A stretch of 64,000 nucleotides of DNA from Escherichia phage JLBYU32: sequence record OK272490.1. One strand, 5' to 3'. A program made the translations under genes and the position numbers. This document shows positions 5,408-64,000 of this stretch, in pieces; the stretch's first letter is position 1; the number at the start of each line of letters is the position of its first letter. The notes below the pieces were generated by a model, which saw only the letters and a list, made by a program, of their open reading frames with translations, did no database searches and was not told the DNA's origin.

Positions 5408-5755
5408 ATGACATTTAAAGAGTTCTGTCAAGCTACTTTCATAGTTGTTTTCTTAGTTGGGGCAGGTGTCTGGGGAGGATACTCTTACAGAGACTACCAA
5501 GTTGCTGAAACTGAGCTAAACAATGAGAAGCTGATAAGTGTTGCTAAAGATGCTTATCAGGAAGGATTAGCTACACTGAGCACCAATTACAAAAATGATT
5601 TGAAAGATGTGCTTGCTAAGAATAAGCATACAAAAGAGGTACTAACATATGAAAAGACTAAGCCAGAGTTTTATAATGTTTGTGTTACTGATAATTATGT
5701 CAGGGTGTTCAACGAGCAAAGTGAACAGTACATTCAAAAACTCCCAAGTAAGTGA
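5408..5755 (+). CDS. putative i-spanin (Rz-like): N-terminal TM helix plus coiled-coil region
   Basis: hydrophobic segment FIVVFLVGAGVWGG near N-terminus; downstream lipoprotein ORF overlaps its 3' end in another frame. Confidence 0.35.
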   Translation: MTFKEFCQATFIVVFLVGAGVWGGYSYRDYQVAETELNNEKLISVAKDAYQEGLATLSTNYKNDLKDVLAKNKHTKEVLTYEKTKPEFYNVCVTDNYVRVFNEQSEQYIQKLPSK

Positions 5756-5918
5756 GAGTGACAAGTACACTCAAGAAGAGTCAAGATTCACTGTCAAAGG
5801 TAATACTGGTAGTGATGTGGCAGCAGCCCTTGAGTTTTATCGTGATGGTTTTTACCAGTGCACAATCAGAGCTAATAACCTTATTGATATGATTTTATTA
5901 GGAAATAAACAGCAATGA
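5649..5918 (+). CDS. putative o-spanin-like lipoprotein (Rz1-like), overlapping the preceding gene
   Basis: signal peptide with lipobox-like IMSGC (MKRLSQSFIMFVLLIIMSGCS); ORF starts inside and extends past the Rz-like ORF. Confidence 0.35.
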   Translation: MKRLSQSFIMFVLLIIMSGCSTSKVNSTFKNSQVSESDKYTQEESRFTVKGNTGSDVAAALEFYRDGFYQCTIRANNLIDMILLGNKQQ

Positions 5919-9971: not shown

Positions 9972-10297
9972 TGACTGGTATCACTGCAATCATTGCCATT
10001 TTCGCGCTATATAAGGCATATAAAGCCTATAATCTAGCAAATAAGGCAATCACACAGCAGGTTAGCAATAACCTTGTAGAAAGCTTTCTAGGGCGCCTCA
10101 GTGATGAGCAAATAAAGCGGCTAGAGATGAGCTTCAGATATAAAGCGAAAACCTATCAGATAAGTGACATCTTCAAAGATGATTTTCAGTTAGTCGATGA
10201 TTATAATTCACTGATAAATGCTTTAAATATCAGTGACTTGAAAGACTATTACGCTGTAATTGTTCAAGAATTGAGCAAACGAAAACAAAACAGTTGA
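9965..10297 (+). CDS. hypothetical protein with N-terminal hydrophobic helix
   Basis: ITAIIAIFALY hydrophobic segment; stop TGA lies inside the -35 of the next cassette promoter. Confidence 0.5.
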   Translation: MLMTGITAIIAIFALYKAYKAYNLANKAITQQVSNNLVESFLGRLSDEQIKRLEMSFRYKAKTYQISDIFKDDFQLVDDYNSLINALNISDLKDYYAVIVQELSKRKQNS

Positions 10298-10322
10298 CAC
10301 TGGTTTTTAGATAGATTAAATT
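10294..10322 (+). promoter_or_regulatory. sigma70-like promoter TTGACA-17-TAAATT (cassette type B)
   Basis: exact consensus -35, 17-bp spacer; duplicated at 11162. Confidence 0.6.
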
Positions 10323-10388
10323 ACACATCAACGGGGAGGGAATGACCTTCCCCACTAAGTAAAGTCCTTAAACTAGGAGATTCAAAAA
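10323..10388 (+). repeat. cassette type B hairpin + RBS (ACACATCAACGGGGAGGGAATGACCTTCCCCACTAAGTAAAGTCCTTAAACTAGGAGATTCAAAAA)
   Basis: GGGGAGGGAATGACCTTCCCC stem-loop; copies at 11191, 11758, 12352. Confidence 0.7.
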
Positions 10389-10661
10389 ATGTATACTACT
10401 AACAACGGTCGTACTCTAAATGTCACTCTACGTCACTACATCAACGGGGTGATGCACTTTGAAGACTTACAAGCTGAGCAACATATCTTAGATTGGCAAC
10501 TTGCAGGACTACAAAAAACTGCTACAGGATACGGGAAAAAGATTCCAACCAGTTGGAAAGTATACTACGAAGGCCGTTTGCGCAGAATTTATCAGGATGT
10601 GCAAAGCAATAGCGCATCGAGTTACATCATAGTAAAAGGTAAAAAGCTGCATTTAGTATAA
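10389..10661 (+). CDS. hypothetical small protein
   Basis: ORF after type B cassette. Confidence 0.55.
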   Translation: MYTTNNGRTLNVTLRHYINGVMHFEDLQAEQHILDWQLAGLQKTATGYGKKIPTSWKVYYEGRLRRIYQDVQSNSASSYIIVKGKKLHLV

Positions 10662-55702: not shown

Positions 55703-56086
55703 TCAAATACCTGTGCAGCTTCTGTTTTCTAAGAAATACTCAACACCATACATAGCTTTTTGCATCAAATCTTCTTTAAACTGAATACGATGATTGAGCA
55801 TAGCCTGTACATCAATATCATCATGGTGTTTCTCTTTAATATTTGCAGATTGCAGGAAATACTCTGCAAGAACGCGATACTGATAGTCAGTTACCTTATC
55901 AGTCATCTCTGTTAAAGATTCTTCAGAGATTGGTTTAAGTAGCTCACCTTTGGATAAAGCAATACCTTTTACAATCTGGCAAGTGTCTTCTGGAACACCT
56001 GACAAGTCCACATTTGGGAGTTCTGTTGCATTGACTGGTAAATTCATTGCCATAACCATTGCAGCAGCTAATAAAATCTTTTTCAT
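55703..56086 (-). CDS. hypothetical secreted protein (signal peptide)
   Basis: MKKILLAAAMVMAMNLPVNA signal peptide. Confidence 0.5.
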   Translation of the reverse strand: MKKILLAAAMVMAMNLPVNATELPNVDLSGVPEDTCQIVKGIALSKGELLKPISEESLTEMTDKVTDYQYRVLAEYFLQSANIKEKHHDDIDVQAMLNHRIQFKEDLMQKAMYGVEYFLENRSCTGI

Positions 56087-58030: not shown

Positions 58031-58219
58031 TCAACAACTTTCTAATAAAGTTTTATGAAGATTTTGCTTAACAACCCGCCTCACATGCCTATGTTCTTTC
58101 TTAATAAAGAGTGACCTCTTCTTGATAGAGCGCCTATTCTTGTAAGTATTACTAGGATACTTATCATGAACCGGACAACAACTCCCCGGATTTGTAAACT
58201 TGATAATCTCTCTTTTCAC
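58031..58219 (-). CDS. hypothetical small basic protein
   Basis: ORF. Confidence 0.35.
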   Translation of the reverse strand: MKREIIKFTNPGSCCPVHDKYPSNTYKNRRSIKKRSLFIKKEHRHVRRVVKQNLHKTLLESC

Positions 58220-59355
58220 TATTCATAATCCCTAATAACTAGCCCGACAGGGAACTGTAAAGAACCCTTACGAGTCATCTTCTGGAACTGTACCGTTAAA
58301 GGTTTCCCGATAAACTCTTCAGGATGCTCAGCAAGATACTGTTTCTTCTCATGAGTAGTCTTCCATGAGACATCTACAAAGACGTTAGGAAGAGTCTCTA
58401 CAACGAACTTACCGTGGCCACGTTTATCAGTCTTGACACCAGTCACTTTAAACTCTTCAGTGTGCATCTTCTTGTGCTTAATCAAGAAGTATGAACGGTG
58501 ACAACACTCATAGAAGGAGTCTTCAGAGATTGAACGGTACATTGCACCTTCAAACTTAGCTTCAACCCACTTATCATGAGCTTCATCGAACTCTTCCCAA
58601 GAATTTACACGACGAGACTTAACAGGGACAACTTTACAGCCGTCTCTAAAGTCATTCAATGGTGAAGTCTCAATAATATCTCTACGCTCAGGCCACGTCT
58701 TAGTACTGTCACAGATATCGTACCAGTAAAACTTGAGTAAGTGTCTGTCAGGATTGTCTTCATTTTTAATCATGGAGACAATATCTTCTAAGTCCCACCC
58801 ATGAGCATAAATCTCTCCATCAAATTCATCAACATCTTTGTGGAGCCTTAACATTGCCATAATGTCAGGTATTAGTTCAGTAGGGATTTTGTAAACAGTA
58901 TTCTCACGAGAATATGCCGTGAAACTAACTGAATCATCACCTCTTGAAATTCTACAACGTACACCATCAAGTTTTGGTTGAGCATCAGCAGGGAACTTCA
59001 GATACTTTGCATGACTAACCTTTGCAGCATCATGAGCAAGCTGTACACCTACCTTCTCAGTATTCTGTGCAGATTCTTTTGTGTAAGCATACCCTTTACG
59101 GTCAACCTGCTTTTTATACTTAGCAGCAACTTCAAAGAGAGCTTGCTGTTCAGCGTTACGCTCATTCTTTTTACCAATGTTCTTAGGTTCTGCTGTATAC
59201 TCTTCAAACATCATCTTGCCATTTTCTTTACCGTAGGTTGTAATAACTTTGTCGCCTACAGCAACACATGACCAGACATTGAAAGAGCCATCTTTATTTT
59301 GTTTGTATAGAATTGTCATTTTATTCCTCTGAGTGATACCAAGTATTGCAAGCAT
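58219..59355 (-). CDS. ATP-dependent DNA ligase
   Basis: adenylation motif I KLDGVRC (KxDGxR); 378 aa, T7-ligase-like size. Confidence 0.75.
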   Translation of the reverse strand: MLAILGITQRNKMTILYKQNKDGSFNVWSCVAVGDKVITTYGKENGKMMFEEYTAEPKNIGKKNERNAEQQALFEVAAKYKKQVDRKGYAYTKESAQNTEKVGVQLAHDAAKVSHAKYLKFPADAQPKLDGVRCRISRGDDSVSFTAYSRENTVYKIPTELIPDIMAMLRLHKDVDEFDGEIYAHGWDLEDIVSMIKNEDNPDRHLLKFYWYDICDSTKTWPERRDIIETSPLNDFRDGCKVVPVKSRRVNSWEEFDEAHDKWVEAKFEGAMYRSISEDSFYECCHRSYFLIKHKKMHTEEFKVTGVKTDKRGHGKFVVETLPNVFVDVSWKTTHEKKQYLAEHPEEFIGKPLTVQFQKMTRKGSLQFPVGLVIRDYE

Positions 59356-59512
59356 TACATGCGTAAAGCTCTAAGTCATTTTTATCAGGTTTATGAAAGC
59401 AGTTTGCTCCGCAGTGGCAACGAAACGGCTTTCCACCAACTGTCAGGGTGAAGGATTGAACCTTTCCATTAGGAGTTCGTACAGCATTTTTATGCTTATC
59501 TTCTTTGTTCAT
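59321..59512 (-). CDS. hypothetical zinc-finger protein
   Basis: CHCGANCFH ... CNACN motif. Confidence 0.45.
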   Translation of the reverse strand: MNKEDKHKNAVRTPNGKVQSFTLTVGGKPFRCHCGANCFHKPDKNDLELYACNACNTWYHSEE

Positions 59513-59715
59513 TTTCTCTTACCACCAATCTCTACGTCAACCACTTGAACATCACCAGCAACATCAAACTTATGAATGATGCTTTCCACAGTGTAAGTCC
59601 AACCATCAATGCGAACTAACTCACCCTCTCGTGGGACGATTGGATTACGTTGAGCTACAGTTGTAGTGGAGTGAACAACATCATAACAATAGATATAGTT
59701 TACTAATACTTCCAT
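59509..59715 (-). CDS. hypothetical protein (start placed at internal ATG with GAGG RBS)
   Basis: track ORF 59509-59814 overlaps lipoprotein gene; internal Met has AGTGAGG RBS. Confidence 0.4.
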   Translation of the reverse strand: MEVLVNYIYCYDVVHSTTTVAQRNPIVPREGELVRIDGWTYTVESIIHKFDVAGDVQVVDVEIGGKRK

Positions 59716-59725
59716 CGTGAAAACC

Positions 59726-59983
59726 TCACTCAATAACCGTGGTATGTGATTGACCATTTTTGCCATAGCTATAAGATGTTGTTGTTTGAGAGTTTGGACA
59801 TCTGACAACAACAATATCCCTGCTTATAGCGTCACCATTGAGTTTGTAGATTTTGCAGTCTTGCATCTCTGGAGGTAGGCTGTAAGAAGCATCTTTGTTT
59901 TCATAAGAAGGGTTGCAGCCAGCCAGAAAAATTACTCCAAGTGCAACCATTACTTTCACACAACTCTTAATCTTATTGTTCAC
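59726..59983 (-). CDS. small lipoprotein (signal peptide + lipobox LAGC)
   Basis: MNNKIKSCVKVMVALGVIFLAGC; mature part ~63 aa. Confidence 0.55.
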   Translation of the reverse strand: MNNKIKSCVKVMVALGVIFLAGCNPSYENKDASYSLPPEMQDCKIYKLNGDAISRDIVVVRCPNSQTTTSYSYGKNGQSHTTVIE

Positions 59984-60115
59984 GATAGTCTACCTCTCTG
60001 TATGTTTTTAAATAGTGGGTGATGAGTTCTGGTAATTCACTACGTTTAACGTTTGAACGAAGAAGTGTCCAGTCAAAACCTTTACCAACCCTTCCCCAGA
60101 GACTGTACAGTTTCT

Positions 60116-60349
60116 TCATATCAACTCCAGAATATCAATACGTTCACCCTTAAGAACTCCAGTACGGTCTCTTGCAATCTTGCCGTCAACAATAAGGATA
60201 TGTGCAGCCCTTAAAGAGTCACCATTAAAACCTTTTACGAACTTGCTAGGCATCACTACAATGGACATCTCCTGAATCAACTCTGGAGTATAGCAATTAT
60301 CGTGAAGTTGCTGAATAACGTCTGCAAGTGTCATTTTTGATGTCTCCAA
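60116..60349 (-). CDS. hypothetical protein
   Basis: ORF. Confidence 0.45.
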   Translation of the reverse strand: METSKMTLADVIQQLHDNCYTPELIQEMSIVVMPSKFVKGFNGDSLRAAHILIVDGKIARDRTGVLKGERIDILELI

Positions 60350-60601: not shown

Positions 60602-61165
60602 TTAGTGTACCTCATACCAGCTTTTACCAACCTTACCAGTACCTGTAACAAGTGTTTCTTTCTTAAGACCTAAGTTCTTAGAAGCTTGTCCATAATACCA
60701 GTCAGTAACTGCTTTCACTTCTGCCGTCATACTTTCTGGACATTCCCAACTCGTCTCGTCGTGATAGGAGCACAATAAACGAGCACCTATAGCTGGCTTG
60801 CGACCGTTCAACTTCATCAAACCTTCGTCAATCATACGACGGCAAGCAAGGTTAATTGCTTCATTCTGAACCTGCGCCTCACTACCCATAAGTGTGTAAT
60901 TCAATAACTTATGTGGAGATTTACACCATAACCACGCTCCAGCGACCTGAATGTACCCACCCTTAGCGATTGCAGCACTCTTGCCGAAAACCTCTTCTAA
61001 TGCCTTCTTAGTGGCCTTAAAATCGGCTTCTAAGTTATCAAGTAGCTTCTTAATCTTTGGTAGACGCATATAGTAGGTCTGCTTAGTCAATGCACCTTCT
61101 TCTGTAGAAGCTGCCTTAATGGTTTTGGCAAACTTCTCATCACCTGCACCGAACAATACATCTGG
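60602..61165 (-). CDS. DNA polymerase (family A), C-terminal segment (second half of motif B and motif C)
   Basis: VLFGAGDEKFAKTI matches T7-like motif B second half; YHDE motif C; in-frame stop at 61166-61168 bounds the segment. Confidence 0.7.
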   Translation of the reverse strand, partial: PDVLFGAGDEKFAKTIKAASTEEGALTKQTYYMRLPKIKKLLDNLEADFKATKKALEEVFGKSAAIAKGGYIQVAGAWLWCKSPHKLLNYTLMGSEAQVQNEAINLACRRMIDEGLMKLNGRKPAIGARLLCSYHDETSWECPESMTAEVKAVTDWYYGQASKNLGLKKETLVTGTGKVGKSWYEVH

Positions 61166-61965
61166 TCAATACACTCGCAAGGTGTACCAGTTCTCTTATG
61201 AACTTCTCCGCATTTCTACGGAGTGTCGGACTATATCACGTAGTAGTAATACTACCGTTGCACTTGGGAATGGTCATTAGCTTACCACCCTACTCTACTC
61301 AGTTCATACATTAAGTATGCTTTTCGATAGTCTCTGAACGTTTCTCTGTTAGGAACTCTAAAATACTATTGTTTACTAAGGTATGCAATTGCTCTCTGCA
61401 TATTATCTACACTGTCTGAGAACAAGCCAAGACCTCTGTTACAGTTGTGGCACAACATCCCTCTCACCTTACCTGTTTTGTGGTCATGGTCAACAACAAG
61501 TTTAGCTTTATGTCTTGAGCCATTCATGATGAAACCTTCACCGCCACAGATTTGGCACTTATGGCCACATTTACTTAACAACTCTTCAACCTCTTCTCTT
61601 TCTAGGCCGTAAGTCCTTAAGTAGTAGTTCTTTACCCTTCCCTTTTCTCCACATGCAGAACTGCAATATGTCTGTCTTGCTGTTCTAGGTGTGAATTGGT
61701 TATTGCAGCTTGGACATATCTTTTCTATGACACGGTTTGCTGCTCTCCTGTCTACTTCAAGAACGCAGTTTCTGCAACGTTTTTGATTGTACTGGTATGG
61801 CTTAAACTCTTCGCCACATCTGGAACAAACTCTCTCTTTATAACCTACCATTGTCTCTCTCCCATTTCTACTATAGGAGTCCTAACAGAGACTTCGCTGC
61901 TGATTACCATATCTTTTAAGACTTAGGCTTCCAGCAATTCACAACGTTTTACATGCGCCACTGAC
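61160..61965 (-). mobile_element. intervening sequence in DNA polymerase gene (putative group I intron; boundaries approximate) carrying HNH endonuclease
   Basis: splits motif B between ...AKNGIYA and VLFGAGDEK...; contains HNH ORF on same strand. Confidence 0.55.
61366..61851 (-). CDS. HNH homing endonuclease
   Basis: multiple CxxC pairs and DHDHKTGKVRGMLCHNCNRGLG HNH motif. Confidence 0.8.
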   Translation of the reverse strand: MVGYKERVCSRCGEEFKPYQYNQKRCRNCVLEVDRRAANRVIEKICPSCNNQFTPRTARQTYCSSACGEKGRVKNYYLRTYGLEREEVEELLSKCGHKCQICGGEGFIMNGSRHKAKLVVDHDHKTGKVRGMLCHNCNRGLGLFSDSVDNMQRAIAYLSKQ

Positions 61966-64000
61966 GCATAGATACCATTCTTAGCCTTCTTACGGCCTTT
62001 AGTTATCTCGTGAAGAAGTTCCTCATCCTGTGTCTCTCTACAACGGATAATATCTTCTTCTTTGTTCAATGCAAAATAGATACTGTTAAGTGTATGCGCA
62101 TCAGTACCTGTGTAGACTTCATACAAATCATTATCAGCATCGTAACGACAATATTTATCAGCCTCTGGATTTAGGTACTTATCAAGATGCTTGCAGTAGT
62201 ATCGTCCATCATCCTGTTTAGTGAACTCTACAAACTCTTTACCTTCAGTTACCGCTTTGGTGAAGTCTTTATCACCCATAAAGTTACACAGTAAAACAAG
62301 CTGTGCAGAGTTCTGGTCAACTGAAACGATATTAGTCCCTTCCTCGCAAATCCACACCTCCCTCATAGGCGCTCCATAGACAGCAGCACCAGACGGCACG
62401 TTTACAATACCATATTGTGTCATACGCCCAGTTGAAGTACCAAACACCATTGCACCAGCACTAAGGCGACCATCTGGACGAATCTGGTTCAGCCAACCTT
62501 TCTCGTCATCCTTTGAGTTCTCAATAGTTCTGCGTCGGTGCATCAAAGTATAGTACTTAGCAATCTTCTGTCCAAGTTCACCTTCAATCGTATCATAAGA
62601 TGATTCAGTAAGTTTTGGTGAAGTACGGATTAAGCAAGGCTCAAGCAAATCTGTGTACTTCTTCACAGACCAGTTATGCTCAATGTACTGGACACCTTCA
62701 TGCTCAACATAGCTCAAACCACACCGCTCAACCATTTCCTGCCATTTAGGATGCTTGGTAATCATCTTTTTGTTGTCTTTGAAACGACAAACCTTAACAG
62801 GACGACCATCTGAGTCTTTCTTGTAGTTCCAGTCATCTGGAATCCAACCAACTGATTTCAAGTAGTCTTTAACAACTGCTACCTGAGTCATACGAGAAAC
62901 TTCAAACTCAATTGGTGTATATGGTGCATCAATCAATCCTGTGTAGCGACTTGACTCAAGTTCAAAGTGGTTAACAACGTGGCTGTTATAGTACTTCACA
63001 GTTTTGACTGTTTTTACTGGCTTCCAGTCTTTGCATTTCTTACCAATCTTTGCATTCAACTCATTGCAAATTGCACGAGCATCCTTCATTGCTACAAAGC
63101 CTTCCTTGTACTCTTCACCAGTTACAGAGTTGGTTGGTGTATAGCAATTTCTCTTTTCAATGTTAAAAATCTTTGTAGTTGGCTTACCAAATGGTTTGAT
63201 TTCATAAGTCTGCATCTCACCATTACGCACCTGCTGACGATACTTCGTCTTAGGGTACTTGGTAATTCTTTTCAGTCCATCTGCATGACCAAATGCTTCA
63301 ACATACTCATTCCAAGCTTTTGCAAACTCTTCTCCAGTGACTTTACCTTTGGTCTTAATAGTTGGAGGTAGATGTGGTTCAACCTCTGAAGCAAGCTCAT
63401 TAGTCAACTTGTCAAGTTCCTTTACATGGAACTCCATAAGCTCTTTATCAGCTTTCCAGCCATTAATAGCTTGTTGACTCATCCAGAAAGACGTCTCTTT
63501 AGCTCGCATGTAGGTTTCATAAGTGTCTATGCCACACTTCTTAAGCTTGAGATACTCGTTATCAAGTGCCCGTTTAGTTTTGGCGTTAATACGGATATCT
63601 TCTACAACACGAGTGAAGATTTCTGCATTCCACACACCCCAATGTTCAATCTCTGGTTTACGAACACCAACACGAGCACCCCATGCAGCCAAACCATGAG
63701 CACCTTTATAACCCTTTGGAGTTGGTCTATCCATCCACTGAACACGAGACTGGATAAGAGAATCCTGAAAGAAATTACTCCACGGTTTACACTTTGGATT
63801 ATCAAAGTTCCATAAATCAGGTGCAATGTGATTGAAAACCCACCAGTCATAACCGAGACCATTATGGATGCAAAGACGTTTTGCCTTTAACGCAAACTCA
63901 ATGCCTTCACGTAAGCCACCCTTAATGTACTTGGTATACTTGTGACCGAGGATAGGCTCATCTGTAAAGACCCATACAGGCGGCTCTTCATCGTCAGATT
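61923..64000 (-). CDS. DNA polymerase (family A), N-terminal segment; partial, runs off window end
   Basis: DQNSAQL (motif A-like) and ...RKKAKNGIYA (first half of motif B); frame open from 63734 to 64000. Confidence 0.7.
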   Translation of the reverse strand, partial: SDDEEPPVWVFTDEPILGHKYTKYIKGGLREGIEFALKAKRLCIHNGLGYDWWVFNHIAPDLWNFDNPKCKPWSNFFQDSLIQSRVQWMDRPTPKGYKGAHGLAAWGARVGVRKPEIEHWGVWNAEIFTRVVEDIRINAKTKRALDNEYLKLKKCGIDTYETYMRAKETSFWMSQQAINGWKADKELMEFHVKELDKLTNELASEVEPHLPPTIKTKGKVTGEEFAKAWNEYVEAFGHADGLKRITKYPKTKYRQQVRNGEMQTYEIKPFGKPTTKIFNIEKRNCYTPTNSVTGEEYKEGFVAMKDARAICNELNAKIGKKCKDWKPVKTVKTVKYYNSHVVNHFELESSRYTGLIDAPYTPIEFEVSRMTQVAVVKDYLKSVGWIPDDWNYKKDSDGRPVKVCRFKDNKKMITKHPKWQEMVERCGLSYVEHEGVQYIEHNWSVKKYTDLLEPCLIRTSPKLTESSYDTIEGELGQKIAKYYTLMHRRRTIENSKDDEKGWLNQIRPDGRLSAGAMVFGTSTGRMTQYGIVNVPSGAAVYGAPMREVWICEEGTNIVSVDQNSAQLVLLCNFMGDKDFTKAVTEGKEFVEFTKQDDGRYYCKHLDKYLNPEADKYCRYDADNDLYEVYTGTDAHTLNSIYFALNKEEDIIRCRETQDEELLHEITKGRKKAKNGIYASVAHVKRCELLEA

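Follow-up and report, generated by a model that had tools for sequence, protein, structure and literature searches.

Sp (spackle) and Imm of the virulent myovirus T4 are made early in infection, are exported to the envelope, and exclude superinfecting phages after adsorption. Neither is a lipoprotein, Sp is largely helical, and both are unlinked to the receptor-binding-protein gene. Llp of T5, Cor of T1, phi80, and N15, and Rtp45 are small lipoproteins that face the periplasm, and all three come from siphophages that use a protein receptor (FhuA or LptDE); Llp targets FhuA, and Rtp45, from phage Rtp, binds LptDE. T5 Llp is made as a 77-aa precursor that matures to 62 aa, with a short tether and a disulfide by which the two ends of the protein are linked (Cys11-Cys58, counted from the mature N terminus; PMC9586334); Cor and Rtp45 are approximately 6 kDa in size and also contain a disulfide. 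Llp and Rtp45, the two for which structures have been resolved, bind the periplasmic face of their receptor. The gene llp adjoins the receptor-binding-protein gene oad (PMC9586334; also seen in the T5 genome), rtp45 is separated from the J-like gene rtp43 by a single gene, rtp44, and cor is found in or beside the tail-tip region of the siphophage genome.

A first-pass annotation of the DNA studied here had singled out an 85-aa open reading frame (ORF) with a lipoprotein signal, likened it to Llp by size and signal type only, and proposed it as a candidate for superinfection exclusion or receptor masking. We followed up this ORF in the window, the 64,000-nucleotide stretch of the Escherichia phage JLBYU32 genome that was analyzed (OK272490.1), and compared it with T5 Llp, T1 Cor, and Rtp45.

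The lipoprotein gene and its genomic setting

The ORF is complete. It occupies positions 59726..59983 on the minus strand and comprises 85 codons followed by a TGA stop, as read directly from the DNA and supported by a match to phrog_902. The start codon is a GTG at 59983-59981, the stop lies at 59728-59726, and a Shine-Dalgarno-like GAGAGG (59993..59998, minus strand), read off the sequence, precedes the GTG with a 9-nucleotide (nt) spacer. The stop of an upstream 48-aa ORF (phrog_2381; 59973..60119, minus strand) overlaps this start by 11 nt, an arrangement suggestive of translational coupling. Initiation at the internal ATG at codon 12 is unlikely, because the signal would then be without a charged n-region. 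The N termini of Felixounavirus orthologues are of at least three types (GTG-NNK[IV]KSC..., compare 59951..59983 on the minus strand of the window; ATG-MWK...; and ATG-MLKLL...), and some public gene calls start farther upstream and read through, which lengthens the ORF to 124 aa.

The encoded protein begins with MNNKIKSCVKVMVALGVIFLAGC, in which a basic n-region and a hydrophobic h-region (mean Kyte-Doolittle value of 2.96) are followed by a lipobox. The signal peptide spans residues 1 to 22 (59918..59983, minus strand), with NNKIKSCVK as the n-region and MVALGVIFL as the h-region; the lipobox L20-A21-G22-C23 (59915..59926, minus strand) ends with Cys23, which is predicted to be lipidated and to begin the mature protein. 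From this arrangement, we infer that the prolipoprotein is exported, cleaved before Cys23, and lipidated on this residue. Cleavage at this site gives a mature lipoprotein of 63 residues (residues 23 to 85; 59729..59917, minus strand), with a tether of approximately 10 residues leading into a small, predicted β-sheet domain. Both the lipoprotein signal and the mature part of about 63 residues proposed in the first-pass annotation were borne out by these readings. Among all six-frame ORFs of at least 40 aa in the 64-kb window, a lipobox behind a strongly hydrophobic stretch is present in only two, this ORF and an o-spanin ORF at 5649..5918.

The window comes from a Felixounavirus. The 4 kb surrounding the gene match 259 phage records at 87 to 95% identity, with Felix O1-like phages predominating, and the 85-aa protein is 96.5% identical to the product of a Felix O1 ORF (AF320576, 59424-59678). 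Its orthologues are annotated as "hypothetical protein" or "unknown" among the matches listed. The split DNA polymerase genes (60602-61156 and 61923-63734) lie to one side of the lipoprotein gene and the DNA ligase gene (58219-59355) to the other, each of them on the minus strand, in keeping with the earlier placement of the lipoprotein gene in the replication block. The same-strand order is the split family A DNA polymerase, four small ORFs, the lipoprotein gene, two small ORFs, and the ATP-dependent DNA ligase. One of the small downstream ORFs, given for context, encodes 68 aa and matches phrog_4427 over its full length (59509..59715, minus strand). No hydrophobic ORF neighbors the lipoprotein gene in the window.

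The only convincing terminator-like hairpin on the minus strand is at 56585-56570, downstream of the replication block, and a promoter scan performed no better on the real DNA than on shuffled sequence (22 sites versus 19.8 ± 4.1). Because gene order is the basis for co-expression with the replication genes, we infer this co-expression; going by gene order only, the lipoprotein gene is probably expressed early or in mid-infection.

Two further features of this part of the genome were observed. The family A DNA polymerase is encoded by two ORFs (60602..61156 and 61923..63734, minus strand) with an endonuclease VII/HNH gene between them (61366..61851, minus strand; PF02945, E value of 8e-20), and related phages annotate a split polymerase and endonuclease likewise; the polymerase looks like a gene split by a homing endonuclease. 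A few kilobases downstream of the lipoprotein gene and on the same strand, a 127-aa ORF (55703..56086; phrog_4332) has a cleavable-looking signal peptide, MKKILLAAAMVMAMNLPVNATE, and would encode a second exported protein.

The DUF4884 family, its conserved residues, and its predicted structure

The 85-aa ORF matches phrog_902 over residues 3 to 83 with an E value of 3e-18. Nearly all of its homologues, including one that is 94% identical, carry the precomputed Pfam label PF16225, which resolves as DUF4884; the label is listed unmarked, denoting an E value of ≤1e-5. A local Pfam-A hmmscan, by comparison, gave no PF16225/DUF4884 match for any family member, even at E values of ≤10, and the conflict between the local scan and the precomputed table may reflect a difference in Pfam version or in the models used. 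No significant family was returned when the ORF and its close homologues were scanned against Pfam, NCBIfam, and PADLOC. Matches to an InsA zinc ribbon fell below cutoff and were rejected. The TrbK entry-exclusion family (TIGR04359) was also rejected: it was matched by one homologue, in the signal-peptide region, at an E value of 0.03 (14.3 bits versus a cutoff of 23), and the 85-aa protein itself gave no TIGR04359 match.

A profile built from 113 family members, the 85-aa ORF among them, scores this ORF at an E value of 3e-31. A word-indexed search with a diverse alignment recovered 117 clusters at 90% identity, and an exhaustive profile search recovered 1,293 clusters at 50% identity with E values of ≤0.001 (741 at ≤1e-10). 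Family members are uniform in length, with all 1,293 clusters falling between 71 and 154 aa. The 85-aa ORF is a genuine Felix O1-type lipoprotein gene of the DUF4884/PHROG 902 family. It is an ordinary Felix O1-type member, in which only the N-terminal extension (GTG-NNKIKSC) is unlike the MWK-type orthologues, and the gene is already catalogued, the family being filed as function unknown in both Pfam and PHROGs. A search of the literature on PF16225/DUF4884 and of phage lipoprotein surveys found no experiment on any family member; the two mentions of DUF4884 in the papers searched are table entries, for Bacteroides thetaiotaomicron BT_3183 and for ORF6 of the T1-like phage Henu8.

We scored residue conservation across 247 family representatives. 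The lipid cysteine (Cys23) aligned in 100% of them, with Leu20 and Gly22 each conserved in 77%. Of the 237 sequences with the core motif, 228 have a lipobox as scored by a script, and 8 of the 9 that it flagged have one by eye. The distance from the lipid cysteine to the first domain cysteine has a median of 20 residues (range, 17 to 31). This first domain cysteine, Cys43 (59855..59857, minus strand), is 100% conserved and is predicted to form a disulfide with Cys62. The latter is part of the signature R61-C62-P63-N64-S65-Q66-T67-T68-T69 (59777..59803, minus strand), in which conservation is 99% for C62, 95% for P63, 85% for T67, 70% for T69, and 79% each for R61, N64, and S65. Further toward the C terminus, G74-K75 (59759..59764, minus strand) is found in 91% (G) and 94% (K) of the representatives; among other positions, P37 is conserved in 96%, and D42 and V59 lie within 79 to 86%. 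The family core can be written as VVRCPNSxT...GK together with two invariant cysteines. The 85-aa protein carries every family mark: the lipobox, C23, C43, V59-S65, T67, and G74-K75.

Among Felixounavirus orthologues, the signal peptide and start site vary and the mature part is almost invariant, with a median dN/dS of 0.06 for the mature region (160 pairs). The gene is thus genuine and strongly constrained. A dispensable passenger, with no significant function in this phage, would fit the count of approximately 197 records that hold a copy at ≥60% identity, compared with 259 in which the 4 kb around the gene are matched, although some of these records are partial. Such a reading is contradicted by the low dN/dS, by the intact family signature, and by the translational coupling with the upstream ORF together with a Shine-Dalgarno sequence, and we consider it the least probable of the explanations weighed here.

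The residue after the lipid cysteine (position +2) differs between lineages. Family-wide it is Asp in 32% and Glu in 19%; in phages of Enterobacterales, it is Asn in Felix-like phages and Asp in Asteriusvirus, Eneladusvirus, and Vequintavirinae. The +2 rule (Lol-avoidance signal) is established for Enterobacterales only. Within this group, Asn at +2 predicts Lol-dependent sorting of the Felix-type protein to the outer membrane and Asp at +2 predicts retention of the protein from the other enterobacterial phage lineages in the inner membrane; different membranes are therefore predicted for different enterobacterial lineages.

An AlphaFold2 model made with the 113-sequence alignment is a five-stranded β-sheet of moderate confidence only (mean pLDDT of 63 for the whole protein and 68 when the mature part is modeled). 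Cys43 is placed just before the strand at residues 44 to 48 and Cys62 just after the strand at residues 57 to 61, and these two strands pair in the model; their placement makes a disulfide that closes the hairpin plausible. Foldseek found no match in the PDB below an E value of 1. In BFVD, a family member with a TM score of 0.83 reproduces the β-domain, and the next matches are phage entries named "Lipoprotein" from T4-like Aeromonas phages, Vibrio phage JSF10, and Acinetobacter phage ME3; neither the PDB nor the BFVD search returned a structural relative of known function. A sequence search of the PDB with the family profile matched only the signal peptides of lipoproteins, for example, BamD and FlgP, and these matches were rejected.

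Carriers and neighboring genes across phage lineages

The family is carried mainly by large virulent phages of Gram-negative hosts. Besides Felixounavirus, cultured carriers include the jumbo phages of Asteriusvirus (121Q and PBECO4) and Eneladusvirus (Serratia phage BF and related Yersinia and Erwinia phages), the Vequintavirinae and their relatives (Certrevirus, phiTE, POP15, A7_1, and W70), Acinetobacter phages (Saclayvirus and the T4-like phage Acj61), Aeromonas phages, and approximately 290 T5-like Vibrio phages with genomes of roughly 114 kb. In 185,579 bacterial and archaeal genomes, one per species, the core pattern [LI][YV]VVRCPNS was confirmed at only 2 loci, a count that refers to this narrow pattern. 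A Paraburkholderia copy is in a region with phage-like genes, beside the host tatABC genes.

In the T5-like Vibrio phages, the family gene lies between the genes for the origin-binding protein and the D2 helicase, a location that matches the early replication region of T5 and parallels the position in Felix O1-type phages. In 23 independent lineages, we compared the same-strand ORFs up to 3 kb from the family gene and found no conserved neighbor, save for synteny between two related jumbo phages. With no recurring neighbor, the lipoprotein gene therefore acts as a stand-alone module.

Several lineages have the family gene among small hydrophobic, membrane, or secreted ORFs. In phage 121Q (3620-3895), a small ORF with a lipoprotein or signal-peptide sequence lies within approximately 400 bp downstream, with one ORF intervening; in phage Acj61 (5268-5579), such an ORF directly follows the DUF4884 gene; and in several further lineages, small transmembrane ORFs flank it. 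These arrangements suggest clusters of envelope-directed accessory genes around DUF4884, in which the flanking genes have no homology across lineages. One phage from metagenomic data, represented by a 52-kb and a 193-kb contig, encodes two tandem, overlapping DUF4884 paralogues (10001-10297 and 10294-10620), the second of which is divergent (E value of 6e-10) and has VQCSGNQT in place of RCPNS.

A periplasmic lipoprotein, some of whose homologues adjoin small membrane proteins, could have a role in lysis, either as an o-spanin, which is likewise a periplasmic lipoprotein, as a unimolecular spanin, or as a periplasmic regulator of the timing of the holin, endolysin, or spanin. The phage has its own spanin pair on the plus strand at 5408-5918, approximately 54 kb away. 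It consists of a 115-aa i-spanin with an N-terminal transmembrane segment (5408..5755; phrog_1152, Rz-like, E value of 1.7e-41) and an 89-aa lipoprotein o-spanin with the lipobox MSGC (5649..5918; phrog_4180, with a weak match to the Rz-like phrog_456) whose gene overlaps the 3' end of the i-spanin gene. We rejected an o-spanin identity for the 85-aa protein on the grounds of this overlapped pair and of the lack of a transmembrane type-II neighbor, and a unimolecular spanin of the T1 gp11 type on the grounds that no hydrophobic segment is present in its polar C-terminal half (…SYSYGKNGQSHTTVIE). Because no type-II membrane partner is adjacent and there is no C-terminal transmembrane segment, the protein is neither kind of spanin. 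Its company is replication genes rather than a lysis cassette, and no neighbor is kept across lineages; for these reasons, a lysis role of any of the three kinds is very unlikely.

Comparison with Llp, Cor, and Rtp45 and possible functions

With 63 mature residues against 62 in T5 Llp, the protein is of Llp-like size, as first proposed. It shares with T5 Llp an origin in a virulent phage, a short tether, and two cysteines in addition to the lipidated one (PMC9586334), and with Cor and Rtp45 the character of a small lipoprotein predicted to face the periplasm. The cysteine spacing differs: in the DUF4884 protein the two are 19 residues apart rather than at the termini.

Profile comparisons were made with full-length and with mature sequences. 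The full-length hhalign probabilities of 88% (Llp) and 92% (Cor) were rejected, as the aligned columns were mainly or wholly signal peptide; the Cor match spans 19 signal-peptide columns only. When only the mature parts were aligned, no similarity was detected to Llp (2%, score of 14.9, versus 9.2 ± 2.8 and a maximum of 20.7 for shuffles), to T1 Cor (0.4%, score of 10.9, versus 9.3 ± 2.2 and a maximum of 17.6), or to Rtp45 (0.0%, score of 5.6, versus 9.1 ± 2.2 and a maximum of 16.8). A local resemblance to Llp at "PKDIKCEAYYM" was inside the shuffle range and was rejected. Cor weakly matches PF24052; the 85-aa protein has no PF24052 match. As judged by these comparisons, the DUF4884 lipoprotein is not related to any of the three.

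The Felix O1-type gene also differs from llp, cor, and rtp45 in location, as it is not near a receptor-binding-protein gene. The polymerase genes and small ORFs separate it from the structural module, and approximately 5 kb lie between the lipoprotein gene and the closest tail gene in phage LinBro. Felix O1 targets lipopolysaccharide (LPS) rather than a protein receptor (PMC8594841); therefore, there is no outer-membrane protein on which a periplasmic lipoprotein could act allosterically. The T1-like phage Henu8 is annotated with both Cor and a DUF4884 protein, ORF6 (PMC12210894). Going by that annotation only, the co-occurrence would imply distinct roles. No DUF4884 family member was found in T1, vojen, or JLBYU09 (for vojen, also with the HMMER filters off).

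These comparisons bear on receptor masking of the Llp/Cor/Rtp45 type, in which the lipoprotein, anchored in the periplasmic leaflet of the outer membrane, would bind the receptor from the periplasmic side, alter its surface, and so block Felix O1-type adsorption to infected cells or debris. Masking would agree with the size class, with the disulfide-capable cysteine pair and short tether that also mark Llp and Rtp45, and with the outer-membrane sorting predicted by Asn at +2. Set against it are the mature part, which lacks similarity to the three proteins and has no fold match in the PDB, the distance from the receptor-binding-protein gene, and an LPS receptor. In addition, phages that infect Enterobacterales, Vibrio, Acinetobacter, and Aeromonas have the same mature domain and are unlikely to share one receptor, and retention in the inner membrane is predicted for the other enterobacterial lineages, which have Asp at +2. 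Of the analogy with Llp made in the first-pass annotation, the likeness in size and anchor type stands; receptor masking is mostly argued against by homology, gene location, the LPS receptor, host range, and the +2 residue, and we regard it as improbable.

The function that we rank first is that of a stand-alone effector that faces the periplasm and acts by post-adsorption exclusion or by conditioning of the envelope, a combined statement that we hold tentatively, at somewhat under even chances. The 63-residue mature protein would be tethered to a membrane and face the periplasm, with a five-stranded β-domain held by a single disulfide (Cys43-Cys62) approximately 10 residues from the lipid anchor. 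It would act alone at the interface of membrane and periplasm, where the surface formed by P37, D42, RCPNSxT, and GK may bind an envelope component conserved across Gram-negative bacteria. The likely outcome would be an infected cell that is refractory to later invaders after adsorption, or an envelope otherwise conditioned for the phage. Post-adsorption exclusion is our leading guess. T4 Sp and Imm may offer the closest parallel to the proposed mode of action; the DUF4884 protein differs from both in being a lipoprotein and from Sp in having a β-sheet model.

An explanation ranked after exclusion or conditioning is counter-defense or host takeover, in which the lipoprotein would serve the resident phage by neutralizing a protein of the host periplasm or envelope (a stress sensor, a protease, a peptidoglycan hydrolase, or an envelope-located abortive-infection component), with no effect on superinfecting phages. 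The occurrence of the family as a stand-alone accessory gene in many unrelated virulent phages is consistent with this explanation, as are the conserved surface motif, which implies a conserved host target, the prediction of either membrane depending on lineage, and the rarity of the family in bacterial genomes. No PADLOC model matched, however, and there is no linkage to known anti-defense genes; sequence by itself cannot separate counter-defense from exclusion. We consider counter-defense possible but doubtful; masking, a lysis role, and a lack of function are unlikely beside it.

A bolder form of post-adsorption exclusion is conceivable, at low confidence. DUF4884 may be a widespread, independently evolved, lipid-anchored mini-domain with which virulent phages from many lineages block a conserved envelope machine other than a receptor and so gain broad exclusion after adsorption. 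The blocked machine could be, for example, a trans-envelope complex or the path that incoming phage DNA takes through the periplasm and across the inner membrane. If this is true, DUF4884 would add a fourth family to the known exclusion lipoproteins, its target logic being unlike that of Llp, Cor, and Rtp45.

Interest attaches to the DUF4884 family, which has more than 1,200 clusters, nearly all in virulent phages of Gram-negative bacteria, is under strong constraint, and has no partner gene; experiments on the family would be worthwhile. Because phages of the Felix O1 type serve in diagnostics and biocontrol, the joint behavior of phages in a cocktail could be influenced by a gene that alters the envelope of infected cells. 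The locus itself matters little, as a standard Felixounavirus ORF deposited in hundreds of genomes. Among the deposits, GU169904 (Staphylococcus phage SA1) and the MG0656xx records (Campylobacter phages A126, A110b, A15b, and others) contain Felix O1-like or T1-like sequence, including the lipoprotein gene or cor, and are probably mislabeled or contaminated.
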